NCBI GenBank assembly: GCA_001244265.2
Contig: CDLV01000006.1
Span: forward strand, 2,852,001 to 2,909,332
DNA from: Microbotryum violaceum
Taxonomy: Eukaryota
DNA length: 57,332 nt
Direction of reading: 5' to 3'
A program made the translations under genes and the position numbers. Shown piece by piece: positions 533-45,675 of the stretch (position 1 is the stretch's first letter; every line of letters begins with the position of its first letter). The notes below the pieces were generated by a model. It was given only the letters and a program-made list of their open reading frames with translations, searched no databases and was not told the origin of the DNA.

Positions 533-1546
533 GCGTTTGTGCGACGATGGTTGAGGGGGCGGCGAAAGGGGAGGCTCTTCACAGATGGGGTCTGTGGGCT
601 TTCTTCTCTTGCGAAAACCTTTTTTATTCCCTTTCGCTATAGAATGCTATGATTATGATATCACGATCGTGTTGTGGAATATCTCACGAAATGCAGCGAC
701 TGACGCGGGTCAGTCGGCGATGGCGAGCCATGCCCATGCACGTGACTTGAGGCGATCTGGACCACTTCGTGCGTTTCCGACGAAGTAGGCTTGGTTTCTC
801 GTTATGAAGGCGAACTCGGCAGATAGCGACACGTCGGCGATTACTCCTTGGGGATCCAGGCCGCGATAGGGTATTGTACGCTCCAAGGTGGGAACCACTC
901 GACCTGTAACGAACCGAGGGTAGTCGATATTCTACTTCAGTCTGGTGTTATGAGGTGGCGCGCAAGCTGCAGCGCCGCGGAGGTGACGGTGAGCGAGTTG
1001 AGCGGCCTAGTCGACTGCCTGCGATACTTCGCCAATCGTTCCACCGTCGAGTAGCCGAGTCACCAAACAAGTAGGTGTCAATTTCATGTGTCAATTTTAT
1101 GTGCCCCAGCATAAAGCTATGTGCGCCGTAGCTCAGCCATCGGCACGAGACTCGAGTCTCCGAGTCGACACGCTCCAGACTCCAGCCTCCTCTGTTCATG
1201 GGCGACCGGCGCCCGGACCGAAGGCTTTCCGGTGTCTCGGAAGAAGAGACCCACGCGAAAAGTTGAGCGCTAACGGTGTGCTTCACAGTTTCAAAACCGG
1301 TTTATTTCTATCTCGAACCGAAAGAGCGTGATGCAAGCCCAAAGAACCACAAGGAGGTCCATCTCGGTGACCGTGCCGACGACTCCGCGCTGGCGCGGGC
1401 TGTCCGCGTTGCGGCGACGGAGTTCAGTCGTCGCCGCCTTCGCCGGACCACAATCGCATGCACTGCACAACCTCGAGAAACATATCGGACGTTTAAATCT
1501 GCCAAGAACGACGAAAAGATGATCACTCGAAAGGGATCGAGCGTTA

Positions 1547-1736
1547 TGTTAGAAGCGGGGTCTGAGAGCCTAACTCTTTTCTATTAGCCTTGTTAATTCT
1601 TTATTCTGCGTGCGCGCCTATCTCTGTCTTTGCGTTTTTTTTCTTTTCTGGTCTTCTTCTCCACGCTATTCTCATCATCTCACTCGTGTATCTCGGAGCT
1701 GAGTCGTGGAGTACCTCTTGGTCCTTATCTGTAAAA
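1547..1736 (+). repeat. 5' LTR of the Copia element
   Basis: TGTTAGAAG...CTGTAAAA, roughly 94-95% identical to 4008-4200 by eye (about 9 substitutions plus a 3-bp indel). Confidence 0.95.
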
Positions 1737-1740
1737 GGTT

Positions 1741-2580
1741 ATGAGCTCAGCGAGCGAATCCGATTCCCACAATGGGGCGGGCAATCGCTTGTACCTCAAG
1801 GACACCAAAGGGTACAAGAGTTGGGCGTCAAAGGCGTATCTCAATTTACGAGGCGACGCACTATGGGACGTTGTTATCCGCTCGGTAGACTCCCTCGTCG
1901 CGGACTATCGGTCCACCCTCGTTTCCGCCAATGCAACTGCGTCCGTCGCGCCTGTTGAACCAACCTCCCCAGCCTTAGCGGGCTCCGGAGGGAGATCTGG
2001 TTCCGCGCCTTCAGCGGACGTCTTGCCCACTCTCACCAGCGTCCAAATTGCGGACAAAGTCGCGGCATTTCGCGATAAAGCCGGCCGTCGGAACGAGTTA
2101 GCATGCAAGTTCCTCGCCAATGCGCTTTCCGAAGAACAGATGGGCCATTGCGAACATCTCGACTCTGCGAAGGACACTTGGGACACGCTGAAAGGGATCC
2201 ACTCTCTCAGTCAATCGAGTCGTACCATGGATTTGCTCAGTGTTCTGATGCAACAATACACGGGTGATATCCCGTTCAAGGAGTTCTTCAACAAGGTCAA
2301 GATTACCATGATTGACTTCAAGAACCTCGATGCTCCGCTTCCGAACTGGTTGTTTGCAGCGATGCTTGTTCGCTCACATCTTGACCAGTACGACTCGATC
2401 GTTGGCAACCTCGCGTCCGATGTCGACATCCACATGGACTGGAACGCGTTCTATCCTAAGCTCCTCATGAACGTCGAGTTGGCCGAGTCTCGTAACAGGC
2501 AGAAGGCATCGCTATCCGATCGAATTGTTGATGATAGCAGCCTCGTCGCTCGTATCTCTACTACTGCGCCAAAGGACTAG
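1741..2580 (+). pseudogene. Copia gag (UBN2-like), ending in a stop just before a degenerate zinc knuckle
   Basis: ATG overlaps the PBS. YKSWASKAYLNLRGDALWDVV and SAKDTWDTLK are Copia gag-like. YCSRSKVHGH (broken CCHC) follows the TAG. Confidence 0.8.
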
Positions 2581-3006
2581 TCCAAGTTGTATTGTTCTCG
2601 CAGCAAGGTCCACGGTCACAAACGTGGTTGGCGTCTGTAGTAGAGATACGAGCGACGAGGCTGCTATCGTCAACAATTCGATCGGATAGCGATGCCTTCT
2701 GTCTGTTACGAGACTCGGCCAGCTCGACGTTCATAAGGAGCTTAGGATAGAACGCGTTCCAGTCGGATTACCTCCGATGGACGAAGAGGATGAGGACAAC
2801 GACAGGCCGGAGGACTTCCATGATGCAGAGGAATCTCTCGACGGCGAGGCGGAAGTCGCTCTCGCTCCTCGTGAAGGTTACGCGATCGTGCGTACTGGTC
2901 CAAACCCAGGCAAGTTTGAGAATGTCGATCGCTCCAACATCCTCCTGCTGGCTCTCGTCGTCGACATCAACCTCCCGACAAGGTTCTGCCCATCATTGCC
3001 GCTATC

Positions 3007-3903
3007 ATGGTCGATGTACTTGATAATCCACCTTTGTTCCACGACAAACTATCCTACGATGCCTACTGCGCTGCGGTGTTCGCCGAGGAAGACATCGAGA
3101 TCCCCAAGACCTTCGAGGAGGCTATGAAGTCACCGTATCGCAACCATTGGATTGAGGCCATGGTCTCGGAGCTCCTTCAATTCGATCATGATGGAGTCTT
3201 CCAGGAAGTCACGTGGCACGAAGGAATTCGGGTACTTGGCACGATCTGGGTCTACAATATCAAGCGCGATGCGAACGGGAAGATCATTCGTTTCAAAGCT
3301 CGCCTTGTTGCTCGAGGGTATATGACGGCCACTGCCGACGCCTGTCTCTACATCAAGCATTCGGGAACTTCGTTTGCTATCATCACTCTTTTCGTTGATG
3401 ATGGTCTCATCGCCTCCAATGATCAATCGTTCTTGGAGTCCGAGCTCGTTTCACTTCACAAGGCCTTCAAGCTCAAGCGTCTTGGTCTGGTGTCGTACTT
3501 CCTTGGCTTCGAGGTTCATCGCACCAAGGATCACATTCTCGTTCATCAGAGCAAGTACGTTTGGACCATGCTCGAGAAGTTCGACTTTGCCTCGCCCTCC
3601 AAGCGTCGTGCTTTCACGCCGATGGATGACCGTCCTTCGCTTCGAATCGATACAACTCCTTTTGCCGACATTCCAATGTACCAGTCTGCTGTGGGTTCTC
3701 TCCAATACGCTTCGACTCGATGCCGACCCGATATTGCGATCGCTGTGCGTGCCGTGGCTCAAAAGAACTCCTGTCCTAACGTCGACGATTGGGCTGCAGT
3801 CAAGCGTATCTTCCGCTATCTCAACAGTACTGTCGATTGGGGAATCCTGTATCGCAACAGCTACTCGGGTGATGATCTACTCCTACGCCTCCTTCGCCGA
3901 TGA
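3007..3903 (+). pseudogene. Copia reverse transcriptase (RVT_2) remnant
   Basis: PKTFEEAM, WVYNIKRD...FKARLVARGY, LFVDDGL, YQSAVGSLQY...RPDIA, VKRIFRYL. A large segment is deleted after ARGY. Protease, integrase and most of RNase H are absent. Confidence 0.92.
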
Positions 3904-4007
3904 TCCGCTGCGGATTTGATGACCAAGCCTGTGGGCCCTCAGCGCTTCGATGATCAACTCCGCGCACTTCTTGGAACGGTCTCGTTAGGCTCTTTGACCG
4001 GTGGGAG

Positions 4008-4200
4008 TGTTAGAAGTGGGGTCTGAGGGCCTAACTCTTTTCTATTAGCCTTGTTAATTCTTTAATCTGCGTGCGCGCCTAACTCTGTCTTTGCGTCTGT
4101 TTTCTTTGCTGGTCTTCTTCTCCACGCTACTAGTCTCATCATCTCACTCGTGTATCTCGGAGCTTAGTCGTGGAGTACCTCTTAGTCCTTATCTGTAAAA
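4008..4200 (+). repeat. 3' LTR of the Copia element
   Basis: Direct repeat of 1547-1736, followed by TSD CGTTA. Confidence 0.95.
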
Positions 4201-4337
4201 CGTTACCGTTAAAATGGGAACCGAACGACGACCGAGTTTGTTCGTCGAGGCCCTCGTGGCGATCAATTCGTTCTCGAGACCGCTCTTGCGCAAAGCCTCG
4301 GCGTTCAAGCTCGACTCGATATGGTCGTTCCGGGGAC

Positions 4338-4700
4338 TGTGGTACTCGGGATCCCGTCGGAGTCATTTCGGACATAGCGGACCGAGTTCAGAAGTCATTT
4401 CGGACAAAGTGGGCCGGGTTCAGGAGTCATTCCGGTTGAAGTGGGTTCGGGTCATTTTAGCGGGGTCGAGTTCCGGAGTCGTTTCGGTCGAAGCAGGGTC
4501 GAGTTTCGAGGGCCGAGTTCGGGAGTCAATGCAAGTTCCACCGGTTCGGGAAGGGTCAAGACGCCGGTTTCGGCAGAATTACCAGCGATTAAGCGGTCCC
4601 GGATAAACTCAGTACTCGGTGACTCGAGACTTGACTGTCAGCGACGAATCATGTGGCGGGATTTGAATGGAAGACCGGGCCGGATGCGCGGATGGAGAGG
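4338..4700 (+). repeat. Left inverted repeat with ~31-bp internal subrepeats
   Basis: 4530-4700 matches the reverse complement of 18427-18597 with 2 mismatches. The outer part is built of GAGTCATTTCGGACATAGCGGGCCGGGTTCAG-like units. Confidence 0.92.
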
Positions 4701-4985
4701 CTTTTTTGCTATGCACCGTTGAAGGGCGACGTGCACCGCGTCGTAGGCCTCACTCGCAGAAAGCGAAGTTTTGTTCACGTAGAGGGTGACGTAGAACAAG
4801 ATCGCCCGACCCAGCTCTCCAAAGCCCGCGAACATGACATCGGTGTTGCACTTGAGGAGCTCGACGCACAGTGGATTGTAACCGTCAAGTCGAGGTTCCA
4901 GACGCTTCAATTCGATCTTGCCTGTATCGATGTCAACGCTAGTCTCTGCTCGGATTGTCCCATTGATACGATAACGGCATGTATC

Positions 4986-5147
4986 TGTTGGAATCAACGA
5001 TGATCCCGAAATGATCAACAAAAGTAGAGAAAACGGCTGGACCAGGAGTCGAACCTGGGTCACTTCCATTACTCGGCTCGGAAAAGCTTTGACCTCTAAG
5101 CTATCCGGCCCCCGATATCAGTGCAAGGTCTACTAACACCTTCAACA
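4986..5147. mobile_element. Solo LTR (162 bp) carrying a tRNA-like cloverleaf, inserted in Helitron Rep
   Basis: TGTTGG...TCAACA ends, flanks GTATC/GTTTC (4 of 5 match). Removal restores ..PTDET-CRYRING... Direct copy at 18868-19023. Confidence 0.85.
5034..5110 (-). ncRNA. tRNA-like Pol III unit inside the LTR (aberrant 12-nt anticodon loop)
   Basis: GGCCGGA-TA-GCTT AGAGGTCA AAGC-T-TTTCC [GAGCCGAGTAAT] GGAAG-TGAC-CCAGG TTCGACT CCTGG-TCCAGCC, followed by TTTT. Confidence 0.7.
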
Positions 5148-7343
5148 GTTTCGTCCGTGGGAACCACGCCAGGTCTTTGATTCTTGATGCAGCTTGAGTT
5201 ATGAATGTGAGACTGGAACGCGTTGGCGAGATCAGCAATGTACTGGGGAAAATGCTCACTGTCCAAGGCCGGAGGTTTGCGTAGTGCCGGATGTGGCTTG
5301 TCAGGGGCTGTTGGGAGTGCTTTTTTGGGATCAGCTCCGAGTTCACGGTTCAGGTCCATATTCTGTGCAGTCTGTCCGGGATATGCTTGTTGCGTCAGTG
5401 ATTCGAGCCAGTTTACGAGGTCGCGTTCCGCGGTTGGCTCGGCCGTCAAATCCTTCCGAAGATCGTTTGGTGAAGGATGCCCCTCAAGCCAAATAAGCAT
5501 GTGCGCGTGTAGTGTTCCGCGCATCTGCGTTTCAACAACCCCGTAATGTGCTACATGTTTCCCGAATAATCCAGGTCGCTGATGTTTGTCGCCTGCTCGA
5601 ACTATGATCTTCAAGGATTGCTTGAGCGTAATATCGAACATTTCGGCAGCTGCTGCGGGATTGGGATTCGCTGCAACAATCTGCGCCCGTCGCTCTGCAG
5701 GATAGCCGAATGCGTCGAGAAGGTCCTCATCAAGGTTGATTTTGCATCCCGCCAGTTTCAGTAGTAAGGGTGAGTGTAAATCTGCCGGGTTGACGGTGAC
5801 GAAGAGGTGTACATACCGAAGGCGTTGACGTATCCGCGGATCTCATTCCTCATGTCGAGCATCTGCGCAGTTGTGCCGTGAATTTTGTTTCCAACACTTT
5901 GCAATTCCGTCGGAATACGCTCGATATGCTTATCTGCTTCTGTTGTTGCCTTGTACCTTTTCGTGTCCTTGGATTTTTTGATCATTTCGGACACAACATC
6001 CATGTCGATTTCGAGCAGTGCTGTTGCGATTCGCGCCACCTTCTCTTCGGGGACCCGAAAAGCGAGTTGGCGAAACACGTCTGGTCGGCGGAGCATGTTC
6101 GAGACGATGCCAAATGGGAAAGACGGGTCGCATCGAAAATCGCTGTCGTACAGATTGAGCCAATGCTTGACTTGCTCGTCCAGAGAAATTTTACGTCGCG
6201 CTCGACACATAAACTGATGAGACCAAATGGATCGAGGTGTGGCCACAGCTTCGATAGCAGGAGCTTATCTGAAGATTCCCACAAAGGGGTGTCGCCTGTC
6301 GGAATGACATAGGTCGGCTTGTCTTGGTTAAACTAACGGAGAGCTTTCTCAAAGAACTGCCATGAGTGGATTGGTTCGTCGGTAGGGGATGGCCGCACAT
6401 GGACGTGTTCGAAGACTGGTTCATCAGAGTCGTTATGCGTTGTTGCGTAGCCTTCAAAGAGCGATGATGTTGGTTCCACTGTCTCTGCGGTCACCACATT
6501 CGTCAAAACTACGTCGGGCACGAGACCGTCTCCATCCGCGATTTGTTGATCCGATACTTGGGGAGCAACCGGGACGGAAGCCGAAGTCGAACTGGAAGCT
6601 GAAACCGCCGTAGAAGCTGGAGGTCTGGTCGAGCGCACCGGAACTGCGTCGAACGAGCTGTGCAAGTCTTTCGCCATCAAAGGAGACGGCAGAGTACGTC
6701 GGATTCTTGCTTTCGTTGGTCAACCACCTAAGCATCTTTTGGATTCGATTCTGCTTCACGATCATGGGTCGACACTTGTCCAGCTTCGCAAGATTGGGGC
6801 TCCCTCCGCAGAATGCACACACTGTCAGCGAGTTCCTCGAATGACATGGGCAGTGCATCCGTGAACGAAGCGGTGTTTTGGCTTGAGATGAGGGTGTTTC
6901 CGCGCGTAAGTTCTTGTTGAGCTTTGGGATATCCGAAACGAGTTAGCTTGTACACGATCTTGTAGGTTCTGGCGCGCGCAGTGACGAGGTGCTCAAGCTG
7001 ACTCGCGTTGGAGAAGCATTCTCGGACATCAGCGGAGACCATCGATCCGGTCCGCTCGACAGCGCTCGACAGGCACGCCTTGACGCGGCTTGGCCTCTTG
7101 CCTGAGTCGTCGCTTCGTCGCTGCACACAACATAGTCACCACCGACATCCGTGATCAGCGTGTAGCCCTCCTAATTCTGCTCACGTAGACCAATCCAGTT
7201 TGTCAGAGTACGCTCATGTGAGTCACGTCCACCCGCCGTCGCGGAAAGTTCCAATTGCCATGTCTCGAACTTCGAACATTGACGAGCTCGTTGCGCCGTG
7301 TACAGCATTCAACAGTTCGCTTCGCCTTCCCCTCGTACTCATA

Positions 7344-9756
7344 ATGTCCCACGCTCAACCCGGCGAAAGCCGCAGCAGTGCTGAACACTGCACTGAACAG
7401 CGAACGCCCCCCGACTCTCCCAGTACGAGTCAGCACACCGACAGCTCGCCTTCGACAAGCCCGTCGTTCAAGTTCGACTCGCCCCGCGCGCATCCACCGC
7501 CGGGTCGGCCACTTGGTCCTCGCCCCCACCGCAATGGGACGATAAGTCTCAGTCGCATGGGTCCGACCAAGAAGCAACGTCAGCGCCCAAAGCAGCGTCG
7601 GCCACGTCGACCCCGGCTCGAAGCGACACCAAGCCACCCCCGTTCGTCGTGTCAGTCGCGTGACTAGGCTCAGGTCTCTGGGCTCTTCACCTGGCGAGAG
7701 CAATGACGGAGACCGCGAGATCGAATGGGCGGGATTGGCGCACTTTTTCCTCGCGCCGTTGACCGACGACATTGACACAACCGTGGTCCCAGAGATCGTG
7801 TGGGAAGACGGAAAGCCAACGTTGGTGAGTGCGCGCAGGGCACATGATGACCATCGGTCTCTGGTGAACGTGCCCGAACTGAGTTTGACCACCGAGTGAA
7901 CAGAAGAGTCGAGGTCGCTTGCTGAGCTTCCAAGAAGACAACAAAAGCGTCGACGTTTATGATCCTTCGATTATCCCGGACGTTGTCCTCCTAACTCGCG
8001 AAGCATTCGAGGCCGACCCAAGTCTGGTAGCTACCTGGACATCGGACGACGAGGACGCCTACGATGATACGCGGTCGTGGTCACAAGTTGCTGCCGTTGC
8101 CGAAATTAGCAGGACGTCGAATATCGATCCATCCGACTCCGACTCGGATATTGTGTCCGGCCCTGAGCGCCTACGAGAATCCCTGTTCGAGCTCGTCTCG
8201 CAATCGCTCCGATCTCACGCGTTCGGGTTCGGCCTCTGTGACAACCTTCTCGAGATCGTCCTCCATACTCCAAGTGGTCGTTTTTGCAGCCCCACAATCT
8301 ACTGTACCGAAGCGAATGGTGACCTTGCAACCTTTCTGACGAGACTGCTCAGCCTGAGCGATCGCGAGCTCGGCATCATCTCCTCATTGCGTGACCGTGT
8401 CGGTTCGACCTCGTTCTCGTTCCCGTCGTGCGAGCTTCCATCTCGGGTTCCGCTGTTTGAGAAGCGTCTCTCGGGCTCCCCTCGTCTCGAAGACATCAGA
8501 ATCCTCGAAACACTCTCCAAGTCCGACTCCATCTTTGGACGTCACACCTCGGCCTATCGCGTTTCCGTCGGCGGCGAAAGTTCGACTGCGCACACCGAGT
8601 ACGCGATGACGGTCTCGTTCGTCGAAGAAGCTCGCTGCGACGAACACGATCGCATCCGTCTCGCCATCACCAACGCGTTACCGAGGATCGACAAGGGCTC
8701 ACCAACATCGTCGACGTGTATCGCGAGAGTGACTTTGTCGTCGTCCCCCACTTTCTCCCTGCGGATCTCCCCTTCAGAGCGTGGGGTCTCAAGCCGCGCG
8801 CGATGGAGGTGACGTTCCATGAACACTGCTTCGAGCCAATCTGCGTCGTCGATTCGACCGAAGCGTTGGCACGCGTTATTCTGGGGGCCGTTCAAGGTAT
8901 GGGCGCTCAATTACTTTCTGTGATATGCTTTCCTCGCGCCCTTGGCTGATCATGGTGGCATCTATCCACTGCAGGCCTAGGCAGTCTTTACCGCCTACGC
9001 ATCCTTCATCGGGACGTTTCCGCTTCGAACGTCATGGTCGCATCTGACGGCAACGGGGTGTTGGTCGACTACGACACTGCGGTGTTCATGGACGGGCCAG
9101 AGGGGGAAGCCGAACGCAAGAAAAATGTTGTGAGTATCTTTCCCAGATTGATCAAGGGTGCCTCTGCCAAGTCCGCCGTACTCTACCGTTGCTGATGATT
9201 CCCGAGGGACGGACAACGCCAGGGGACGCTTGCATATCGCGCGCGGGAGCTGGTGGAGGAGTACAAAACGCGACCAACGTTTCTTCATCAGCCATGGCAT
9301 GATATCGAATCACTCGTCTACGTGACAATGTTTGCCGTATTCATACAGCCTAATGGACCCGACGACTCGAGCGAGCTTTCGGACAAGACCAGAGGCATTT
9401 GGCAGCTGTGGAATTCGAAATTGGGCGCCGTCGACTCGAAGACGATGCTCTTCCTAGCGCCTTGGGGACCGCAAGAGTTGTTCGAGCCCTTCAAGGAGTT
9501 CTGGAAGGAGGATCTGGCTACGCTCGTCCAGACGGTCGCCAAGTACTGCGGCCTGGGTGTGCCGCGCACTCCGTGGGCTACGCGGTTCGACGAAACCGCC
9601 ATCCTCGAACCTCGTTGGGCAAGTGGCGAATTCACGCACGGCCAGTTGGCCTCGAACTTGTTAGCGTTGCTCGTGAGCATCGGGCAGAGGAACGCGCCGG
9701 AGAGTGAACCGCCTAGAGTTCCCAGGGATAGAGCAGGACGGGTGCTGTTTTTGTAG
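7344..9756 (+). pseudogene. FunK1-type fungal protein kinase with N-terminal REase-like domain (gene A); multi-exon, frameshifted
   Basis: Spliced sequence gives LHRDVSASNVM..VLVDYDTA..GTLAYRA..HQPWHDIESLVYV. N-domain IPDVV..WSQVAAVAEIS. Introns at 7825-7903, 8897-8974 and about 9130-9222. Frameshift near 8682 and probably further ones in the 5' exon. Confidence 0.8.
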
Positions 9757-10720
9757 TGTAAGCGTTTGAATGAAATTGCAGTGCTTTTTGACAGAGATAC
9801 CTGTGTGCCGAGGACCATTGGCATGATTCGCCTCAGTCGCTGGCAGCTCGCCCTTCATCTCCTGCGGGCGCCCCTGCGGGAGCACCTGCGCTGCGAGAGG
9901 GGAGCCCGGGAAGCTCGGAGACGAGAGACGACCCACACGAAAATGCCCATTCCTCCGGCCACCCGTAAGCTTTTACCCATGCTCTCCTCGAACAGAACGA
10001 GTCTTTCGGTCGCGGTTCGAGCCCTTTGGGAGAAAGCCGACCGTCTTTCCGATCACATCTGGTCTGGTGGAGGAGTCCTTTTTGTTGTTGTTTTGAGACT
10101 CCGCACGGTTACTGTGGAGTGGAAGACGACTGTTGCAATCAGCTCTTAGAATCCTTGCCAGAACCTCTGCGTGTCATTATACATCGTGACCCGCACAGGC
10201 TGGGAAAGTTCAGGATTAAGGTGAGGGCTCCTGTGGGCAGAAGGTATGGGCGCCGCGCAACAGAGGCGCTGCTCGGGGCTCTGAACCGGACCAAACCCTT
10301 TGGTGACCTTGGTCGCCCCGTTCCTCCTCGCCCCATGTGCTTTCGGAAAGTGAAATTAAGTTCCTACGATCAGTCACTGCGATCAACCGTCAAGACGTTG
10401 CGTCAAGTATTCATCACGACTAAAGAGCACCTTTGACAGCCATCCATCCTTCATCAAGATCTGACCTCTGGACAACGTCCGTGGGGCTCAGTGAGCGACC
10501 AGAGGTCGAATTGCCAACAAAGCTTGTCATTATATGGTTGCATCGTCCTTCAGTCTACGTATAGTACCTGTTATGGTACTTCATCTTGAGCCTCTAGCGA
10601 CTTCATGAATCCCTTCAGCACCTCATTTGTCTTACCCTTTTTTAGTCACTATTAGCTCTTTATTATCTCCGCTTATCATCCCTTCCTAGTCCTTCTGGAG
10701 TTTGTCCCTTAGCCTTTGGC

Positions 10721-10842
10721 CACTCTGTTCTCGTCCCGTTCCATTGGACTGAGTCGTGGTCTTCATCAGGTATGCATTCTCTGGAATCCTACTCACTCTG
10801 TTCTCGTCCCGTTCCATTGGACTGAGTCGTGGTCTTCATCAG
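10721..10842. repeat. Exact 49-bp direct repeat, 2 copies, 24-bp spacer
   Basis: CACTCTGTTCTCGTCCCGTTCCATTGGACTGAGTCGTGGTCTTCATCAG at 10721-10769 and 10794-10842. Confidence 0.95.
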
Positions 10843-10940
10843 TTACCACATGAGAACATTTTTACAATAAAGCTTCCCCTGTGCCTTGGACCAAATCATA
10901 CAAGGCAGAGCCTTCAGAACCTTCAAAAACGACAAACACC

Positions 10941-13224
10941 CTAAAGACGAGCCTTGAAACGTTTCAGCTCGGCAGACAGTCGGTCGAGGCTGCAGTTGCC
11001 GCCAGGTCCCCATTGGCGCCGCATCCCAAGGTCTTGCTCGCGTAGGCGCACGGATGTAATATCGCCAGCGGGTCCTCGGAGGCAGCAATACCTGCTCATA
11101 ATCTCGAAAAGGCTTGGAAGATCGGCCCAGAAAGGTGGATACATGAGGTCGAAGGTAGCGTTGGCTAAGTTGTCGTAGTGCGAGCTTTTCGAGTAGATGG
11201 CGATCTGCGACTTTTCTTGATTCCACCTGGTCCACAGCTCGCAAGCTTCCACCGACATGTCCATCGAGCTGCTGGGTCCCCCGGGGCGCTTGCACACCAC
11301 GAACTGGTTGATGTTTGTCAAAGCCTCGACAAGATGCCAGATTTCATGGGGTACGATAGACTGTCGACCTCCTTCGTCCGGATACCCTCCCTTAGCCAGG
11401 AAAGCCAAGACGCCCTGCGTAGAGAGCCGGGCAGTCGTCAGTCACCTTGAACCGGCCCTGCTATACAGTCGAATACGTACTGCACTTTCCGCAAGTTCCG
11501 ACGCCGCAGACGCACTGCCTAGATCCACCATCCCGTCGAGGTCCACAAGGACACCTTGTCGGGCTCGATTAATCATGAGACTGCCATCGGAAAACTGACG
11601 AGGCAGGAGACCGTGCTCGCACAAGAATCGTAGTCCTAGGTTAACCCGCATCGGACTCCGCAGTCAGGACAAGACGCGCATTCCTCCAGTTCGACCGATC
11701 CAATTACTCACCTTCGACTATTCCCATGTTGAATTCGACCATTGCGGAGGTCGATTCGATTTCCAAAACGGTGCGGTACAGGCCTTCAAAGATTTCACAC
11801 TGCAGTGTGCGGGGGACAAAGTTCATGTCCCCACTGCGCCCGATCGGAGGGGGTACGTTCCAGAAGTTGTCGACGTCGACGAAGGCAATCTTGCGAATGG
11901 CAATGGACCTGACGTCGTCGGGGTTGCACACTGCAGTGTGAAATCTTTGAAGGCCTGTACCGCACCGTTTGGGGTTAAGTCGAACAAGGCCGTCGAGCCG
12001 CTGGGTGCGCTGGATTTCGTCTCGATCGGGGAACGCGATTCGCACCGTGTGCTGAGACAACGGGGTGGGTTGACGATCACTGACGAACGTCGGTTGGGTC
12101 GCTCGGCACAAATCGCTCATTTTTTGGTCAAGTTCGATGCGGTAGACTGAAGGGCGTGCCCCAAACATCGCTGGATGGATGAGTTGTTGGCACAAGAGCT
12201 TGATGCTCGGCGGTCGGGAGATCGGCGGGACCGGAGGGAACCCCTGGGGCGGGAGGCGGCCCATGTTGAGCTCGCAGGGGAACAGTGCGGCGTACGCGAT
12301 CGCTCCAAGGGTGTCAAGATCGTGTCGGAGAAAGCGCACGATCAGACGCTTGAGCGACGCTAGCCCAGACTCGCTCGCACAGTCGATGGGCTCCGAACGG
12401 ACCATGCCTGAGGGTGTGTGGATGTAAACCCGCAGCTTGCTGCCGCAAAGCGTGAAGGCAAAGACCCATTTCCGGATCGGCTTGGTGGACGTCGCTCGGT
12501 AGAACCTACGGTAGGCCTGGTCTCGCGCCTCTACCTTCTTCTCGGGATTGGACTTGAATTCGCCAAAGACGAGAACGTCGTCGACATTACGCTCATCGAT
12601 CAAGGTGGAGCCGGTCGTTAGAGCAAGCGCATCCCAGACCTTGTCGACTCTCTCCCATGACCGGACCTTGCCTGGCGTTGACGCGCCTGGGAAGAGCAGA
12701 ACCACGTCGGCGCAGTGATCTTTCGAGCGCACTTGCCCGGCCGAGGTGGTGACGATTGCGTTCGAGCTCCCACAGACGACCAAGCACCGATCGATCTCCG
12801 CCTGGGGTGTCAAGAGGTCACTTGTGAGCACTCATTCTTTGGGTTTCCACCAATGAAGGAGTCTACGACATACCTCCTCCTTGATTTGCTCGGTGATTCA
12901 TTTCACAAAGATGCCCATTCCCTTCTCCGTGCCCCAGTGCGCTCCTTCGACTTCCGTCGGCCAACGGATGGCCTCCACCTGGGGGTCAATAACCGAGTCG
13001 GCCTCCTCGAGGTATGCTTGGAGCGCCTTCGAGCTCTCCACCCTTCCTTGTACCTCTGTCTTGATCCTCTGGTCCGTCGCAGTTGCCAAATTTGTGGCCG
13101 TGTTGAGTGCTGCCATTTCGACAAGTTTTACTGGCACGACCGGCGGCAGGCGCGGCGGAGCAGGCTTGGTCCTTCGCTGCGGTGCCACTGGGAGGAGTTG
13201 AACGGAGGAGTTGGCGGGCCTCAT
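10941..13224 (-). pseudogene. FunK1-type REase + pseudokinase (gene B); four exons, one in-frame TGA
   Basis: HCADVVL..FGEFKS..RDQA (PD-ExK-like) and FAFTLCGSKLRVY. Kinase loop reads LLPRQFSDGSLM..VDLD, and subdomain IX reads WHLVEAL. Intron positions match gene A. TGA at 12898-12900 interrupts exon 1 (FVK*ITEQIKEE). Start codon uncertain. Confidence 0.8.
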
Positions 13225-14773
13225 TCAGATTTGAAGCCGGCCAAATTGACTCAGCAAACAAGTTGCACAACTTACTACGGGATCGATCAAGGCTTGAGTG
13301 ATCTTACTCGAGGACGACGACGTTCGCAGATACTCAATTCCTAGAGAGCAAGGTATTTCAGGGGCCAACGTTCGACGTCAGCTGTCTGGGTGCGAAGCTC
13401 CGCGCTTCAGCGGCGCAGGCCCCGAGCGCCGCGAATCGCAATCAGACGACGACTCACCAGCGGGATCGAGAATGATAGTTGCGGTGGGCAGGCGGAATAC
13501 ACCCTCAGAGAGTAGAACAAGCCAGAAGTCTGTAGTGCGTCGAAGCAGGGACGTTCTCGTCGTGATGTGGCAGAGGTGGAATGAACGGGAGGAGAGCAAA
13601 AGGCGAGTTTCAACCAACCCCACTTCACGCGCGCCGGGACGCGTAGCGGCGCGATCCGGCGGACCGAAATTGTAGGCAGTGCACGATCGAACAGCACCGC
13701 GAGGCTGTAGCATCGTAGCCTTGATGGACCGAGAAAAGATATAAGCCATTCAATCCACTCACAAAGTCCAATACGCTGCTCACTTCCGTGTCATTGGAAC
13801 AGACGGCGGAATGACACAGACTGGTCGGCCACCGCCGCCGCCAGATCATCGGGGAGCGGGCCAGCTCGTCTTCGAGATCCGGGCGGCGCTGCGTGCGAGC
13901 GTCCATTGCCGTCCAAGTCGACCGCACTGCACACGCCGCAAGCCGAGAGTGATGGGCAGCAGCAGCTCAAGGTTACTAACTTGGCAGTTGTTGCACGGTA
14001 TCGAACACTTGTCTCTCTGGTATCAGCCAGCCTGGCCCTGGCAGCCTCGTGCACGTCGCCTCTAGCTCGAGTCCGAGTCCGTGAGATGGCAGTGCTGCTG
14101 CTGCCCCTGCTGCTGCTCACCCGCGTTGATGCATTGTGACCGACGGCCTATAGGTGAGACCGATGTACGCTCTTCACAAAGATCTGAGCAAGTCTAAATG
14201 TTATTTGCAGTATACCTTCCAACGCTACTCTGTTTACACAATAATGTAGCACCCAGGTTCTGGTCCCACGACTGCACTCGACTCGCCGACTACTCAACGA
14301 TCGGAGTCGGCCTTGCGAAGTCCATCTCGTTGCTGTGGTGCCCCACACATAACGTCAGCATCAGTACACGGCACGTGATCGACCGAAAGCCTTTGACCTC
14401 TGTCACCCTTTGCTCACCAGAAGCAAGGTGGCTGTCATCAGGCTCAATTCAGAAAGAGGATACACTTCGGAGGCTTTACTGGGGAAACACATGCTGGAGC
14501 TGACACAAGGTTGCTCGCACGCACACGACGAGATCGTACAAGGCTTCATCAGAGCATGGTATTACGCGATCCCGAGACTTCATATCTGCTCAGATTCAAT
14601 TCGTCACATCAACCAATCCCTCCTTCGCCCGGTTTCTGTCGATCTCCATCCGCCGAAGCATCATCGTCCCTCCCTTGTATTCCAAAACACCGCCTCGTGT
14701 CGAAGCGGGCGGTATCGCCGCTGCCCTAGTCGCGCCTGTGTTCTCACGGGGGAGCAGATATCCCACAAATGAG

Positions 14774-16696
14774 TTAATTCCAAGGTGCCTCCGAAGCACC
14801 GGCAGCTCCTTGTCGATTCGGTGATGCTCCCGTTGCGGCTGTGCCTAGTTCTCCGCCTTGCCCTCCTCGGATTGCGCCCAGTCTTGCGGCAGCACCACCT
14901 CGCGCCCGCGATGTCGCCCTCAGAGCGAGCGTCGGTGTCGCAGGTGCGGCTGCTGGGGCAGGTGCAGGTGCAGGCGATGAAGGGGCAGAACCAAACGCGG
15001 CGGGAGTGGCGGTCGTATCAGGCAAAGGAACCCCCCCGTTCGCCTGGAGAAGTTCGTGCGCGACCTTTGAGCCAGACGTCGGACGCCTTGAGCTTGGTCT
15101 CGACCGCCTTCTTGAGCGCCGTCATCAGTGTGCCCTTTTTGATGCACTCTTCCTGGCATGTTGTTGCGCGTCTCCTGCAGCTGTGTCGCAACATGTGCAT
15201 CGTTCTCGGTCGCCTGCCTGGCAAGCGCTTCCGTCACCGCGGCTTGGATTGCTTGTTGTTGCGAAGCGAGTCGACCTGCTTCGAGCTCCTTGAGCTTGCC
15301 CACAAAGAGCGCATCGACATCGACCTTCGGTGCGAAAGCAGGTGCCGACGAAGTGGTAGCAGTGGCGGTAGCAGTCGCGATGGCGGCTTTAGTGGCGGCT
15401 TTCGCATCGGGTTGAGCTTGCGCACGTTCGGCTGAAAGACGCGTCGTGGTCTGCTGCTCTCAGATCTTTGCTTCCTCGTCGGTTCCAGTCTTGAGCTGCT
15501 CAAACTCGGCCTGTATTGCCGTCTCGGATGCCTCGAGCTGGGTCTTGACCTTGGCAAGCTGCTCCCCGAATCGCTTTTTCGCCCTGCATTGTCGACGGCG
15601 GTCAAAAGCGTTCCAGCAGCGGCGGCGGTAAATGTTGCAAGCGCTCGGGCGGCGACGAGTTCGCCGTGCAGAATTTCGAAAGCCTTGCTCAGCTCAACCG
15701 TAGTCGTCTCAATGGCGGTCGCAATCGCCGACTATCACTCCGCAGCAAGTCGAGCCTCCCTTGACCTCAGCGACCTGGGTTCGATCAACCTCATCGACGA
15801 CGGCAGCATCGCTAGGTCGAGGGCCAGCACCCGCGACGCACTCTTCGACGGCCTTGATAATCGTCTCCTGGTTGTCGGCTTCGAAAGTCTCCTCGACTTT
15901 GACGAGTTCGTCGGTGCGTGCCTGCAGGGCGGCAAGCTGCGCCTCGACCTGGGGCGCCTGTTGTCATTCAAGATCGGCTCCTCCCTTTCTTTGCAGTCCT
16001 GTTGATGCAAGTCCAATACCTGATCAGCAGATGCCGTGGGAATTGACTAAAAAAACACGCGGACGTTCAATAGGAAACTCACAGCGACCTGATCCTCCAA
16101 CATGTTCTTCTCCGCCTCGAGCGCAGTCAATCATTCGTCGGCTGACGTGCTGACGTCATTCTGGTGAGCTTCATGCATCGCGACCACCCGAACCTGGAAG
16201 GCCTTCGAGCGTTCCGACGTCCCGTTCGAGCTCTCGCGATGAACCTCGCCTTCGCCTCCGCGTCGGGCTGCATCGTCGCCTTATCCTGCTCGAGCTCCTG
16301 CAGCGGCCGCACAAGCGCCTCGACGTCGGCCTTGAGTTGTTAGACTTCGATCTTGAGTGTCAGCAGCGCTTCGGGGTCGATTCGCTTCATGAGCTCGGCG
16401 GAGTGCGTCGTCGAAGCCGATACGACCGGACCGGACCAGACTGGCGCTCCTCGGCGCACGCGGGGCGCAACCGCGTCGCTTTCGGTTTGCTTGCCGAGGT
16501 CGAGGTCGAGTCGGAAACCGACGATCTCCGTCTCGCGGGGCAAGAACGTGATGCCGCCGAATAGCTCGCCTGACGGGGATGCGGTCGTCGAGACGGCACC
16601 ATCAGTCGCGGCGTCGACCGCTTCGGTGGCGGCAGGGTCGGCATTGGGAGCGCCTATCGACGGCGACTCTTGCAGCAAAGCGGCCTGCACAGTCAT
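14774..16696 (-). pseudogene. Decayed Ala/Glu/Gln-rich coiled-coil protein gene
   Basis: Successive minus-strand coiled-coil-like ORFs (LLTLKIEV*QLKADVEALVRPLQELEQ; KLKELEAGRLASQQQAIQ) broken by stops and frameshifts. Confidence 0.45.
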
Positions 16697-16699
16697 TCA

Positions 16700-16931
16700 T
16701 TTCAGATACTGACGAGAAAGAGCGCTTCAACTCGCGAGGCCTTTGATCAAGTTTCAGCGTATAAGCCCCAGAGCGGGCAACGAGCACGCCGATGAGGCGG
16801 CCAAAGAGGCGACCAAAGCGACTGATGACGAGTGGATGAAGCGAGGCCTGGAGATCGAGCGACTCGACGCGATCCCAGTTATGGGGACGGCACTGCGTCA
16901 ACAAGGCAAAACGCGTGTCAGCCAGGTGTAG
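16700..16931 (+). pseudogene. RNase H fragment, probably from a non-LTR retrotransposon
   Basis: IKFQRISPRAGNEHADEAAKEAT matches the RNase H C-terminal GNExADxxAK motif. Confidence 0.5.
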
Positions 16932-17707
16932 GCGACGACTCTGCAACAAGGGCAAGACGGGCCCCACTTTCCCAAGCTCGACGACTCACCCGGGAGCTCG
17001 CCGCTTCAAGCTGCACCACAGGCAGCACCCCCGACGAACAGCCTCCTTCTTCGCTCAACTGCGTGCATGAAGATCGTCACCTGCGCACGACCTGTTTCGC
17101 CGCCGACCGACTCCATTCAACCAGCTGTTTTGCGAGCGGCGCGTCCAGCGCGGCGGAGACTCTGGAGCACGGTATCGAGCACTACCAGGGTCAGCATCGC
17201 GTTCTACCAAGAGGACAATGAGGAAGGACTTGCCTCCGGACGACGTTCGACTCTACGTCTCGAGCGTGGCGGCATCCCAACTCATGATCGCAGGCTTCTT
17301 CTCCTCGACAGGCGCATGCTCACGGTACGAGCTTCTATTGGTCCGGGAGACGAGCTCCGACAGAGCACCGAAATGAGAACGAGCCAGAAGATGCACGCAA
17401 CCTCTTCTGGTTACTGCAATGTTGGCAATCACCCGTGAGCCACGGCACGACGCTCTCGGGCCGACGCATTAGGAGGGTCGCGTCGACGGGTAGGGGAGGC
17501 CCCAGAAGGAGCCATCCGGATTGTTGAGAAAAGTAGAAAAAAGTTTGATCGAATCAAACAAGAGCTGTAGGATCGACGCCAGAGGCTGGTTGGCCGAAGC
17601 AAGAGAGAGCAACCGCCCTCCAGTGACCTCGACCAAGAGCGAGCGGAGGAGAGCCGGAGCCGCGAAAGCTGGGGGGGGGGGGCGGAACTGCAAGCGGCTC
17701 CAGTAGG

Positions 17708-18329
17708 CAGCATCTTAGCTGGTTCTCACTTTCTGCGTGTTTCAAGTCTCGTCTCTCGTCTCCAGTCTCCAGTCTCAGCGTTTCGTTCTCGTACTCGGTC
17801 TCTTTTCTCGGTTTGGGCCCTTTCCTTTCCCTGTCTCGCGGCCGTTCCGGTCGCTCTCTCGTTCTCGTCTCTCGTCTCCCTCCTCTTCGGTCTCGGTCCC
17901 ATCTTTTCCTTATCATTCCATATCATCTTTGATCGACCGCTTTGCTATACTATAGTTCTCATTAGACGATGCCGTTGCTGTTGATCCCGGCGCTTTTTTG
18001 GGCGAACCACCCGACATCGGCCGAAAGTCAAAGTACGACGTCTGTCCGACTTCCAACTGTACGTTCTTCCCTTCATTTGTCCTATGGTATAGCAAAGCGG
18101 TCGATCAAAGATGATATGGAATGATAAGGAAAAGATGGGACCGAGACCGAAGAGGAGGGAGACGAGAGACGAGAACGAGAGAGCGACCGGAACGGCCGCG
18201 AGACAGGGAAAGGAAAGGGCCCAAACCGAGAAAAGAGACCGAGTACGAGAACGAAACGCTGAGACTGGAGACTGGAGACGAGAGACGAGACTTGAAACAC
18301 GCAGAAAGTGAGAACCAGCTAAGATGCTG
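17708..18329. mobile_element. Foldback/MITE-like element: 248-bp inverted arms, 126-bp spacer
   Basis: 17708-17955 is the reverse complement of 18082-18329 (one mismatch seen). CAGCATC...GATGCTG ends. No clear TSD. Confidence 0.85.
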
Positions 18330-18411
18330 TATTGGATCCTAGAAGTGGTCTAGCTAAAAACAAGAAGCAAACTCCCCTCAAACGTTCCGACCATTCAAAC
18401 CGCTGCGCTCC

Positions 18412-18831
18412 TGTCATTCCCCTTCACCTCTCCATCCGCGCATCCGGCCCGGTCTTCCATTCAAATCCCGCCACATGATTCGTCGCTGACAGTCAAGTCT
18501 CGAGTCACCGAGTACTGAGTTTATCCGGGACCGCTTAATCGCTGAGAATTCTGCCGAAACCGGCGTCTTGACCCTTCCCGAACCGGTGGAACTTGCAACG
18601 ACCTCCGAACTCGGCCCTCGAAACGACTTCGGAACTCGACCCCGCTTCGATCGAAACGACTCCGCTACAACCACTGCTTCCGACGGGATCCCGAGTACCG
18701 CAGACCCCGCTAAAATGACGCGACCCCGCTACAAGCGAAATGACTCCTGACGTGGCCCGCTATGTCCGAAATGACTCCTGAACCCGGCCCGCTATGTCTG
18801 AAGTGACTTCGAAGGGATCCCGAGTACCACA
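18412..18831 (-). repeat. Right inverted repeat (may extend 15 bp further inward than the left copy, ending ...GAATGACA)
   Basis: Reverse complement of 4338-4700. Contains a second internal copy of the terminal motif at about 18682-18702. Confidence 0.9.
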
Positions 18832-18867
18832 GGACGACGAAAAGAAAGACGCGAAAGGGGAAAAGCT

Positions 18868-19023
18868 TGTTGGAATCAACGATGATCCCGAAATGATCAA
18901 CAAAAGAAGAAGAACGGCTGGACCAGGAGTCGAACCTGGGTCGCTTCCTTTAATCGGAAAAGCTTTGACCACTAAGCTATCCGGCCCCTGACATCAGTGC
19001 AAGGTCTACTAACACCTTCAACA
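18868..19023. mobile_element. Solo LTR (156 bp) carrying a tRNA-like cloverleaf
   Basis: TGTTGG...TCAACA ends with perfect 5-bp TSD AAGCT (18863-18867, 19024-19028). Same family as 4986-5147. Confidence 0.92.
18915..18986 (-). tRNA. tRNA-like gene inside the LTR, nominal anticodon TTA, non-canonical loop (probable pseudo-tRNA)
   Basis: GGCCGGA-TA-GCTT AGTGGTCA AAGC-T-TTTCC GATTAAA GGAAG-CGAC-CCAGG TTCGACT CCTGG-TCCAGCC-G. A box TAGCTTAGTGG and B box GGTTCGACTCC. One C-A mismatch in the acceptor stem, no U33. Confidence 0.7.
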
Positions 19024-19028
19024 AAGCT

Positions 19029-20255
19029 GTCGAATCTTCCCCCGATCCCGGCTTGGCGCGAAGAGGAAGAAGGCTCAACGGTCGATGCCGATCCCGCCGT
19101 ACCGAGAGAACGGATGTCCAAGTCCGAGATGAGAACACGACGCACGGAGTTGCTGTGGTCTCGGCCCGAGTCACTGGTCACATCTTGGGTCGTACCTCAT
19201 CTTGAAGGGAACGAACATGAGAGTACGATCATCGTTCTTTATGAGTGCTTGCGAAAGATGAAAGAAAGCGGAGCGGGGTGAAGCGATGCTGATGCCTCGA
19301 TGGTCCTGCGTGTTGAACAGGGGCTCAAACAACACTCGCGCGACATGAACATCCGAGAGCTATTGGGCGACCAATTCCCGACGACGAGATGGGTGATGCC
19401 GCAAGCACACAACCGACGTGTCACCGTCTTTGGACGACAACTAATCCCCGCTTGGTTCAACATCCGGGCCTTCCCTTTCAATTATGCGACTGATCAAGAT
19501 GACAAGGCGAAGTACGAGTCGGCACGGGAAGCCAATGCTGTTATTACGCACGAGCGGGTCGAGCTCATTCGCGCACTTCGTGCGCGAGGCGCACTCTCAT
19601 CGGAGGAATCTTCGTTGCTCGGCGCTAGGGGTCGTCGTTCGGCCGCGCAGATGCGCAAGCTCGTTTCAGGCGAATTTGGGACGCTCGCGGAGAAGGAGTG
19701 GGCGAACCAGAGGATCCTTCTTGGAGGGTTCTCGCAGGGAGGTGTGATGGCACTGTTGACGGGTCTCACAAACAGAGATCCGCTGGGTGGGGTGTTTGTG
19801 CTGAGTAGGTTCTTGCCGATGAGGGACATCTTGCCGCAGGTAAGTTCGAGTATCGAGCATCGAGAAGGATACCTCAGCTCGGTTTTGATGTCAAGAGGTG
19901 ATGTTTTATGTTCTTACTACAGTACACCAGAGATCTACACCAGAAGAACATGCCAATGTTTTGTCGTCAGCGCGGGTGACTCTTACATGCCGTGCGTCAC
20001 ACGGGGCACTCGACAAGCTCCTTTGACAGGGGCTTGAAAACTGACGTCACGTCGACGTCATAAATTAGATTCGAGGATGCGACTGCCTCGGTCGCTCTAC
20101 TACGAAGCAAAGAGCCGAAAGGCGCTGGTGAAGGTGGTGTGGGTTTGCACCATTTGCAGTGCTTGGCTTATCCGAATCTCTACCACGCCTGGTTCAGCGG
20201 CGAAGTGATCGATCTCGCGATTTGGATGAGCAAGGTGCTTCAGACTTACAAGTGA
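19029..20255 (+). pseudogene. Acyl-protein thioesterase / phospholipase-carboxylesterase-like gene, 5' part disrupted by insertions
   Basis: HESTIIVL..RWVMPQA..RVTVFG..IPAWFNI..RILLGGFSQGG (GxSxG). The first splice donor looks damaged. 3' boundary approximate. Confidence 0.75.
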
Positions 20256-20756
20256 GGTGTCTGAATCTAGGTCGTTTTTTGTGTGTGCTCAACATACTCG
20301 CTTTTATTGTCATGATACCCAAGTTTTCTGGTCGAGACATGCGATGTTGTGGCTTCTCTGAATTTCTCTGCCTCGTCGTCTCCGCTCGCCCCGCCCTGCC
20401 GGAGGCCGCTGGCTTCGTCCGGGTTGGATGTTGAGTGATCGGTCACCGCGTGCGAGAGGTTTCACTTTGCTCATTAGCGAGCGGCTTCCTTTCGGTCCCA
20501 CGAGCTATTCTACACCCCGTGCGTAACCTCGCTCATACCTACTACCTACGGTTTTCACAACACGAACGGACATCTCCACCGAAGAAAAACCTCATCCCCG
20601 CGTGAAAAGCCGTTCTTGAAGGGTGCTTCCTCGGCGTAAGTGGAGTCGAGTCGGGCTAGAGCCCACTATTGGAGCCGCGCTGCGTCGAACGGGATCGTCG
20701 TTGGTTGCACCACTTCACTGACGAAAGCTTCTCCTTGCATTTTATTGCAGACCGGA

Positions 20757-39426: not shown

Positions 39427-40263
39427 ATCTTTTCTCTCCTCCTCCTTCTGAGGTCTCTGTTTTTGTCTCTCTTCTATGCTTGTTTTATATTTTGTACGCA
39501 CTTTTTGTACGCACTTTCCCTCAGGTTCATCTGCAATGCGCAACGCTCGTCATCTCGTTCATCTCATTAGCGTCGTAGTTGGACTCGAGAGCACCCCGAG
39601 CTGAATGGACCTCAGCTCCTACCGGTTCGGCGAGAATCGTGCTTCTGGACTGAGGTTGAGGCTGGAAGAAGAGAGAGAGAACAAAGGAGGAAATGAAAGG
39701 TCTGCATGGAATGAACCGCCCCCCCCCCCAAGAGACAAGTTCACTCAGTCTTAAGTTAGGTAGTGGCCCCAGAGCCAGAGGCACGATGTCGCCTGATCCG
39801 CGGTGAGAATTTATGTTGTCGAGTTTCGTCGGCCCTCCACCACCCAGTGCAGCTCGCCCTAACCCGGGCTTGAACGTACATCCACGTCACCGAGCACTCG
39901 CCTCGAACCACTGCATACACGCAACATTAGGTGGAAAACTATTTCGACTTTTTCAATTTTGCGGCACTCGCCGAGGAAGATGGCAATTCCTATCCTCTCG
40001 AGTCGATCATACTCGTGTTCATCCGCCCATCGTCTGTCCGATTCCAGTGGAGGCTGGTCACTCCCGGTGGCAAGTCTTGAATACGAGCAGGGAGTGGGAG
40101 GAGGGTGAGGGAGAACAGGATTTGAAGCGACTTTCACTTCGTTGCGAAAGGTCGTTGCGGAAGGTCGAGACTGGTCGAGACCTCAACTACCTGTCATGAG
40201 AAAACGGAATCGCTCCAACGCCAGTCCAACGCCGCGCCCCCCGCCCAAGCGCAATCCGAGTCA

Positions 40264-44882: not shown

Positions 44883-45675
44883 GTCTCAATTATAATGGCA
44901 ATTCCAAAATATCACATGTCACAGACTCCCGCGACCTGCAAAGAAGCTCGCGCGAGCACCCTGTGGTATCTGAGAGAAGGATGCGACCACTGCACTAGAA
45001 TCAGAAAAAGGAGGCCGCAGATTGGCCTCAGGACCTGCTGGCATGCAACGTGCTTTCCCTTCCCGCTACCAATAAGCTTTGCATCTAAGCTCGCAAAAAA
45101 AAGACTTGCATGAGCTTATCCTTGGTGAACCATTTGACAAGGTCTTATAACCTCGGTTTGATCACTAGCCTGTATCGGCATCGGCATCGACCGGCATCCT
45201 ACTGATGCTCGCGGCTCGTGCGCCCGAGCGCCGGCTCGTCGACTGGACAGAGTAGGACAGAATCATTTTGCAGGAGCGCGCGCCTTGTGAGATAATGTGA
45301 TTGTTAACTTCCTATGTTTCCTTCTCGCATCATGTCCCCTTTTCTCGGTTTCTTCTTACCTCCTATTTGGCCTGCCTTTCCACACCTTAGCTCTCTCCCT
45401 TTTATGGGCTGGGTCCGTGCGCCTGACAGAGGCGGCTGGCCCAGCCGCGCGCTCACCCGAGCCAACGGCCCGGCCAAATTAGGCGGCGAAAAGCAGTCCA
45501 AAACTCGCGCGCGAGGACAATAAAAAGCTGAAGGGTGTGGAGAGCCCGCCGCCCCAATGCCCACCCAGCCACGTACAGCCGCACTTTCCCTCCACCAACC
45601 TTACACCAGCCTCACACCAAGAACAAGCGACCCTGCTCACCACTTCATCTCTGCATCTGTATCGCTGCACTGATC

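Follow-up and report, generated by a model that had tools for sequence, protein, structure and literature searches.

The 57,332-nucleotide (nt) window analysed here, from Microbotryum violaceum (contig CDLV01000006.1 of assembly GCA_001244265.2, positions 2,852,001 to 2,909,332; coordinates below count from its first base), contains a 14.5-kb sequence bounded by two long inverted arms, which we refer to as the element. The window is fungal: Pfam finds in it Pkinase_fungal (FunK1) genes, Copia gag and reverse transcriptase (RT), Helitron Rep domains and host genes, the last encoding an EXS-family protein, an acyl-protein thioesterase and Nup120. The nearest named proteins are those of Microbotryum silenes-dioicae (98% for the thioesterase), and such protein relatives place the host among the anther-smut fungi. 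The element occupies an intergenic site, with the EXS gene ending near 250-530 and the thioesterase open reading frame (ORF) opening at 19282. From left to right, the EXS gene is followed by a Copia-like element (1547-4200), a flank of 131 bp, the element, a flank of 36 bp that includes the right copy of a GGAC tetranucleotide, and a mini-element that carries a tRNA (18868-19023). Between the right end of the element and the thioesterase ORF lies a tRNA-like gene at 18915-18986. The preliminary description of this DNA had proposed that excision would re-create an open frame leading into the thioesterase exon. When the element is removed in silico, with or without one GGAC, no junction frame stays open past 18988, and the thioesterase ORF does not start until 19282; the proposal does not hold.

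Inverted arms and their flanks

The two arms are a genuine pair of long inverted repeats. In blastn, 4337-4700 and 18832-18427 align in inverted orientation and are 82.6% alike across 407 columns (E 1e-124); the two arms are 97% complementary in their inner 198 nt. The 18-bp tip, TGTGGTACTCGGGATCCC, is identical at the outer ends of the left and right arms, on opposite strands, and recurs with one mismatch as an internal copy in the right arm (Table 1). These three matches in the window compare with 0.04 expected, and 0 of 100 shuffles reached three. Tandem repeats with a period of 31-32 bp underlie both tips. The inverted repeats of 360-400 bp, the identical 18-bp termini and the subterminal repeats of about 31 bp described previously are thus all present. 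The range given with them, 4334..18835, takes in both copies of GGAC, and the element proper is therefore 4338-18831, or 14,494 bp, with 13.7 kb bracketed between the arms. No third arm copy and no further arm fragments were found in the 57-kb window by blastn or by the tip search. When the left flank (4207-4337) and the right flank were aligned to both arms by the Smith-Waterman method, the scores did not exceed those of dinucleotide shuffles (z about 0). The arms thus have no detectable extension past the tips, despite a subrepeat motif at 4324 that is considered below. As folded single-stranded DNA, the left arm has the same stability as its shuffles (z 0.11).

GGAC stands on both outer flanks, as had been reported, and forms a candidate 4-bp target-site duplication. 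The end of the left flank equals the start of the right flank for these 4 bases only, with no longer match; the chance of a match for a fixed 4-mer is 1/256. Arms that face outward, with identical tips and the same 4 flanking bases, are what is expected of the two ends of one terminal inverted repeat (TIR) element, and the data support that expectation.

Table 1. Features of the element and its immediate flanks (positions in the window)
Feature	Position	Strand	Details
Left GGAC, candidate 4-bp target-site duplication	4334-4337		Within CGGGGAC
Left arm (long TIR)	4338-4700	+	363 bp; tip 4338-4355; 32-bp subterminal repeats 4361-4435
Helitron Rep/helicase remnant	4701-7141	-	About residues 270-1010 of about 2000; frameshifted; Helitron_like_N, DUF6570 (Pfam)
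Nested mini-element A	4986-5147	-	162 bp; TGTTGG...TTCAACA; tRNA-like gene 5034-5110; flanks GTATC/GTTTC
FunK1 fungal-type protein kinase gene 1	7889-9753	+	Pkinase_fungal matches; spread over three ORFs
350-bp insertion	10526-10875		Includes one copy of 7-bp duplication AAAGCTT
FunK1 fungal-type protein kinase gene 2	about 10846-12831	-	Pkinase_fungal on 11707-12831; minus-strand coding signal 10960-12640
Low-copy repeat segment	12517-17631		Contig depth relative to flank about 4x, 3x or 1x by strain
Orphan coiled-coil gene	15031-16696	-	About 82% identity to a 402-aa hypothetical protein of Microbotryum silenes-dioicae
Foldback repeat	17696-18339		Arms of about 260 nt, 98-100% complementary; 126-nt loop
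Right arm (long TIR)	18427-18831	-	405 bp; tip 18814-18831; internal tip copy 18685-18702; 31-32-bp repeats 18716-18808
Right GGAC, candidate target-site duplication	18832-18835		Same 4 bases as left flank

Copies of the arms in other strains

Twenty public runs, under three organism labels, contain the right flank, and the contigs of four of them (X1, X5, X6 and X11) were compared over positions 1000-20400 at 88% likeness. The contigs are short and their summed depth is not a copy number, so the depths below are rough; joints, loose ends and contig pieces were seen for 15 of 40, 24 of 521 and 32 of 2795, respectively. In each of the four runs the left-arm bin has a summed depth about 4-6.5 times as great as the single-copy flank; the bins that hold the right arm and the foldback are deeper still, depth at the foldback being high in 4/4. 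Because the arm bins are raised in every run, these data suggest that the arms belong to a multicopy family. Among the joints listed, several arm variants occur (some reading "goes back 33" or "skips 254", some changing over between arms of left and right type), and joints of this kind within the arms indicate copies with differing numbers of subrepeats.

The joints also bear on the boundaries of the element. In three of the four runs a 1x joint, among those listed, breaks exactly at 4337, the base before the tip, indicating that the tip is a true boundary between sequence entities. This joint, found in X1, X6 and X11, connects 4337 to 10525 on opposite strands, and both positions are element boundaries; it can be read either as another arm tip beside a copy of the 350-bp element or as the left flank running into the sequence that ends at 10525, in reverse. 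A further joint, 18352 to 18768, found at 1x in three runs, links the right-arm tip region to the foldback edge at another locus, which hints that the foldback is part of the body of the family.

Depth within the element differs between parts and strains. For 12517-17631, contig depth compared with flank depth is 866-938 vs 222.5 in X1, 21-22.9 vs 7.81 in X5 and 68-100 vs 103.4 in X6, as rough ratios, and contigs end at 17631 in all three of these runs. In X6 and X11, a 1x contig with a single mismatch covers the junction of mini-element A with the Helitron remnant (5118-5798). The X11 contigs give almost no cover of 13940-17174 and none of 19116-19762, which is not evidence of absence. Contigs of the right flank stop in the tRNA mini-element, that of X1 starting at 19084 and that of X6 ending at 18998. 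Two further searches gave no additional copies or alleles: 23 metagenome-contig loci with the 18-nt tip were rejected as chance hits, their blastn likeness covering only about 18-25 nt around the tip, and the ORF across the left junction (4134-4436) matched none of the predicted proteins in a protein search for occupied or empty alleles.

Sequences enclosed by the arms

The left arm adjoins part of a Helitron. When eight full-length Helitron proteins (1788-2065 aa) were used as tblastn queries, all eight gave minus-strand alignments that begin near residue 270 (7141), break off near residue 930 (5114), restart at 4982-4994 and end at 4686-4704, near residue 1000. This stop coincides with the inner end of the left arm at 4700. 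The same queries found the helicase half nowhere in the window; what is present has several frame breaks and does not amount to the single ORF with Rep and a PIF1-type helicase that defines an autonomous Helitron. The gap in the alignments is mini-element A, which lies between near-perfect 5-bp repeats and splits the Helitron ORF. Its twin to the right of the element, at 18868-19023, is flanked by a perfect 5-bp duplication, AAGCT. The two mini-elements (156-162 bp) are about 91-95% alike and share the ends TGTTGG...TTCAACA and a T-run. Their tRNA-like genes both pass the Rfam tRNA model, one reading Gly-GCC with an insert and the other having a TTA anticodon, and at least 10 contigs with differing left flanks begin at 18868 in one run. 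The pair looks like a mobile mini-element with long terminal repeat (LTR)-like ends that carries a tRNA gene.

The junction of the left arm with the Helitron remnant also exists in M. silenes-dioicae. There, BQ5605_C002g00998 (gene model P0002) matches 6326-5129 and then 4985-4641 at 98%, skipping the mini-element as if it were an intron and extending into the left arm for 60 nt. Its 2.1-Mb contig also carries the thioesterase orthologue, C002g00987 (98%), and ten locus tags separate the two genes. The presence in the sister species of both the junction and a multi-gene interval reaching to the thioesterase indicates that this copy of the element is old and fixed. The nearest relative of the coiled-coil gene in M. 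silenes-dioicae is on a different contig (C022). As a gene model, BQ5605_C002g00998 (4641-6326) is drawn from the Helitron remnant, its last 28 residues coming from the transposon arm, and is probably a mis-annotated pseudogene; an annotated Helitron "gene" of this species is thus seen to run into a transposon arm.

The coding content of the element was assessed by a Pfam scan of 121 ORF translations (27 + 94), in which a match counted as meaningful at E below 0.001 or at or above Pfam's cut-off. Inside the element such matches are to Helitron_like_N/DUF6570 and Pkinase_fungal, beside a few weak, sub-cut-off matches to unrelated families. No rve, DDE or other transposase family was found within 4338-18831 among these translations, in agreement with the earlier statement that no transposase is recognisable; this copy encodes none. 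The mixed content reported for the element, comprising a Helitron Rep, kinase genes, a coiled-coil gene and a foldback, is likewise all there. The two genes had been called nuclease-kinases, of which the kinase part is borne out by Pkinase_fungal and the nuclease part is not, since the Pfam scans show no nuclease domain. FunK1-type kinase genes also lie outside the element, at 40126-42567 and 45532-48039, too diverged from the inner two for a DNA-level match. The FunK1 family is a local feature of the region and not specific to the element. Kinase gene 2 contains a 48-nt inverted repeat (98%; 11763-11810 and 11926-11973), and other copies carry 13 different letters in place of 11924-11975 in 4/4 runs.

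Of the further parts of the interior, the 350-bp insert is missing in each of the four runs where the sequence around it occurs in other copies (joints 10518 to 10869 and 10526 to 10877). It has an internal 52-bp direct repeat (10721-10772 and 10794-10845), and its summed contig depth is high. The coiled-coil protein passes no Pfam family (best E 0.032) and has no Atlas neighbour; its AlphaFold model is all helix or disorder at low confidence (mean predicted local distance difference test score, pLDDT, 53.6), and nothing suggests a transposase. At least two of the inner parts are separate elements, and the foldback probably is as well. Inspection by eye near 17.6 kb gave no convincing canonical Helitron 5' end, and the reading of 7.2-17.6 kb as one giant gene-carrying Helitron is a guess.

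Repeats are also present in the surroundings. The Copia-like element at 1547-4200 has lost its interior, with only gag and part of RT remaining; its 195-bp LTRs are 92.9% alike, it is flanked by a 5-bp duplication (CGTTA), and it holds a 343-nt imperfect palindrome at 2437-2764. Copies of it elsewhere in the runs have a different LTR end (loose end at 4190). Farther right, a direct repeat of 2.27 kb at 99.6% identity (49930-52196 and 54508-56769, starts 4.6 kb apart) holds a 563-aa ORF without a Pfam match and may stem from a recent duplication or form the long repeats of a further element. Self-comparison shows about 0.9 kb of diverged tandem repeats at 43995-44891, with 70-80% likeness between offsets.

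Origin of the element and comparison with known systems

We favour, with a probability of about 0.5, the reading that the two arms are the ends of one old, dead, non-autonomous, foldback-style long-TIR class II element that was later bloated and rearranged. The arms of its family are most likely long, unequal TIRs made of a conserved tip plus 31-32-bp subrepeats. We infer a single insertion event as the source of both arms, and likewise the order of events and the original size. The element would have inserted between the EXS-family gene and the acyl-protein thioesterase gene, duplicating GGAC. Its original body was probably small, consisting of the arms and perhaps the foldback beside the right arm, and the present 13.7-kb inside would be mostly secondary. 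A Helitron, possibly already with neighbouring genes, may then have come to sit inside the element, after which an internal deletion would have joined the middle of the Helitron to the left arm; the tRNA-bearing mini-element and the 350-bp element would have inserted later. To move, the family would depend on a transposase supplied from elsewhere. So read, the non-autonomous element is the frame of a fairly ordinary dead transposon nest and an ordinary product of transposon nesting in a Microbotryum genome, its family unclassified. The earlier proposal of a non-autonomous gene-carrying transposon agrees with this in its TIR ends and its lack of a transposase, and the multicopy arm is in keeping with it. 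The proposal departs from the favoured reading in the coherent gene cargo, which is unsupported because the left arm is fused to half a Helitron, inner parts have duplications of their own and depths differ between parts and strains.

Several observations weigh against the favoured reading. The 4-bp duplication comes from one insertion (n = 1). The left boundary, CGGGGAC/TGTGG, resembles CGGGGTC/TGCGG at the internal tip copy of the right arm (6/7 flank bases), and the subrepeat motif GTC[AG]TT[CT]CGG stands at 4324 as well, immediately outside the tip; of its 6 occurrences in the whole window, the other 5 are within the arms. GGAC may thus reflect a target preference or part of a repeat module rather than a unique duplication. 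A target preference would explain the likeness of the CGGGG[AT]C sequences, but it would at the same time lessen the weight of the GGAC match and weaken the case for a single event, which leaves room for arms of separate origin. In addition, the fusion of the left arm to a truncated Helitron shows at least one rearrangement, so that this arm could have come by a route other than that of the right arm. The 4x contig of X1 reaches 17631, into sequence that breaks contigs in three runs, and all copies of the inner segment could therefore share one right-hand neighbour, as those of a mobile composite would. Finally, the empty site, TTCCGGGGAC followed directly by GACGAAAAG (4337 joined to 18836), was not seen among the 15 of 40 joints listed, the contigs breaking at repeats next to either end, and no second complete copy of the element was seen in the part of the contigs of the four runs that was listed.

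One alternative is that the arms are unrelated as a pair, being remnants of separate insertions, or fragments, of one family that came by chance to face in opposite directions at a distance of 13.7 kb, with GGAC a chance match or a preferred target. We regard this as possible but doubtful. Summed contig depth suggests, roughly, tens of arm copies in the family, and the locus is a dense nest containing a Copia element with its 5-bp duplication, two tRNA mini-elements, a Helitron, the 350-bp insert and the foldback. The inner end of the left arm adjoins the truncated Helitron rather than element-specific sequence, and the recurrence of CGGGG[AT]C ahead of the internal tip copy fits a target preference, under which GGAC would carry no information. 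However, such an origin needs two elements that each lack the inward-facing arm and stand in the right order and orientation, plus the 4-bp flank match; the window contains no further arm fragments, and the inner 198 nt of the arms are nearly the same.

A true cargo-carrying TIR transposon, in which the arms mobilise all or most of the 14.5 kb with a transposase acting in trans and have multiplied it in some strains, seems unlikely. It would accord with the depth of the 12517-17631 contigs, raised in X1 and X5 (a hint of 3-4 copies, on contigs too short to connect arms and interior) but about 1x in X6, and with summed depths that are fairly even, at a rough 3-5x, across 7.5-17.8 kb in X1 and X5. 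The end at 17631 shared by the 4x contig of X1 and the 1x contig of X6 may also point to a common right-hand neighbour. These depths are sums over contigs and not copy numbers, however, and in the four runs the depths of the left-arm and Helitron-junction bins do not track that of the inner segment; the junction at 5118-5798 is on a 1x contig in X6 and X11. The left-arm/Helitron junction at the same locus in M. silenes-dioicae marks this copy as old and fixed, the nearest relative of the coiled-coil gene there lies on another contig, and the inner parts carry insertion signatures of their own. If the composite were mobile, it would be a rare basidiomycete case of a TIR element moving kinase genes and would bear on the spread of FunK1. 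Less probable still is that the arms represent an unclassified, superfamily-level fungal lineage with TGTGG tips, a 4-bp GGWC-type duplication, foldback-style arms and a perhaps integrase-like enzyme, which could carry foreign DNA of over 10 kb, kinase genes among it; the strain differences in depth over 12.5-17.6 kb would then be recent movement of the composite in Microbotryum.

A pair of inverted solo LTRs from one LTR retrotransposon family is a very improbable origin for the arms: the tips do read TGTGG, as in Gypsy-type LTRs (TGTNR), and the right unit can be read as TGTGG...TGACA when lengthened by 11 nt past the homology, but the last 11-22 nt required for a CA end are non-homologous between the units, the inner homology ending at GGAGAGG, the outer end is in both cases the 5' end of the unit, the 31-32-bp internal tandem repeats and variable arm length fit foldback-type TIRs better, and neither unit has a flanking duplication of its own nor the left a conserved CA end, on which last two grounds the composite of two inverted LTR-like units suggested earlier is likewise unsupported.

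The single long-TIR element that we favour can be set beside described systems, for which the comparisons below draw on parts of each cited paper. Microbotryum genomes are reported to contain TIR elements and many Helitrons (PMC10502011, PMC4469406). The Rep/helicase gene, the largest of the recognisable parts inside the element, is of the same kind as those Helitrons, but here it is a passenger or intruder, truncated, frameshifted and split by a nested element. The parts of these two papers that we consulted describe no such TIR family, and part of their supplements holds nothing relevant under Ginger, Mutator/Mutator-like elements (MULEs), CACTA, Academ, Sola, Harbinger or Mariner, although the transposable element library could list the family. 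No described basidiomycete family with these features was found in the open-access literature, and the TIR family is apparently undescribed. The practical use of the present data lies in providing its ends, its subrepeat structure and a candidate 4-bp duplication; annotation pipelines would probably label such a family "unknown" or split it.

The ends had been called Ginger-type. Ginger1 and Ginger2 have TGTNR...YNACA termini (PMC2836005; GingerRoot, PMC6839031, was compared alongside), and the TGTGG...CCACA tips and the 4-bp length of the candidate duplication agree with these. TGTNR tips are common to Gypsy LTRs and hence are not diagnostic of Ginger (PMC2836005). Moreover, Ginger1 targets CCGG/CCGT and has TIRs of 40-270 bp, and Ginger2 prefers RTATAY and has TIRs of 50-180 bp (PMC2836005), whereas the duplication here is GGAC, the arms are 363-405 bp with tandem subrepeats, and this copy has no integrase-like ORF among the translations scanned with Pfam. 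The tip sequence and the duplication length thus favour the earlier assignment, and the target, the TIR length and the lack of an integrase do not. With MULEs that have tandem TIRs and with Pack-MULEs (PMC3310237), the element shares a second, internal tip in the right arm and foreign gene sequence between long TIRs. Slippage at repeated motifs and nested insertion have been proposed as origins of tandem TIRs in MULEs (PMC3310237), and both apply equally well here. MULEs, however, make duplications of 9-10 bp, of which there is none here, no relative of a Mutator transposase was seen, and the internal tip copy spans only about 38 nt rather than a whole second TIR.

Drosophila FB and Tetris foldback elements have long TIRs, with an outer conserved part and tandem subrepeats, that vary in arm length and repeat number; their middle is variable and either non-coding or foreign, and most copies are non-autonomous, no transposase having been found (PMC4079207). 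Tetris and most of these elements give duplications of 8-10 bp and are assigned to Mutator, whereas only a 4-bp candidate is present here, with subrepeats of 31-32 bp, arms no longer than about 0.4 kb and a basidiomycete host. We assign no superfamily, because foldback elements and MULEs make 8-10-bp duplications and because the target, TIR length and integrase of Ginger do not fit. In form, the Microbotryum arms come nearest to those of foldback elements and of MULEs with tandem TIRs: long, unequal and built of a conserved tip and tandem subrepeats around a variable middle.

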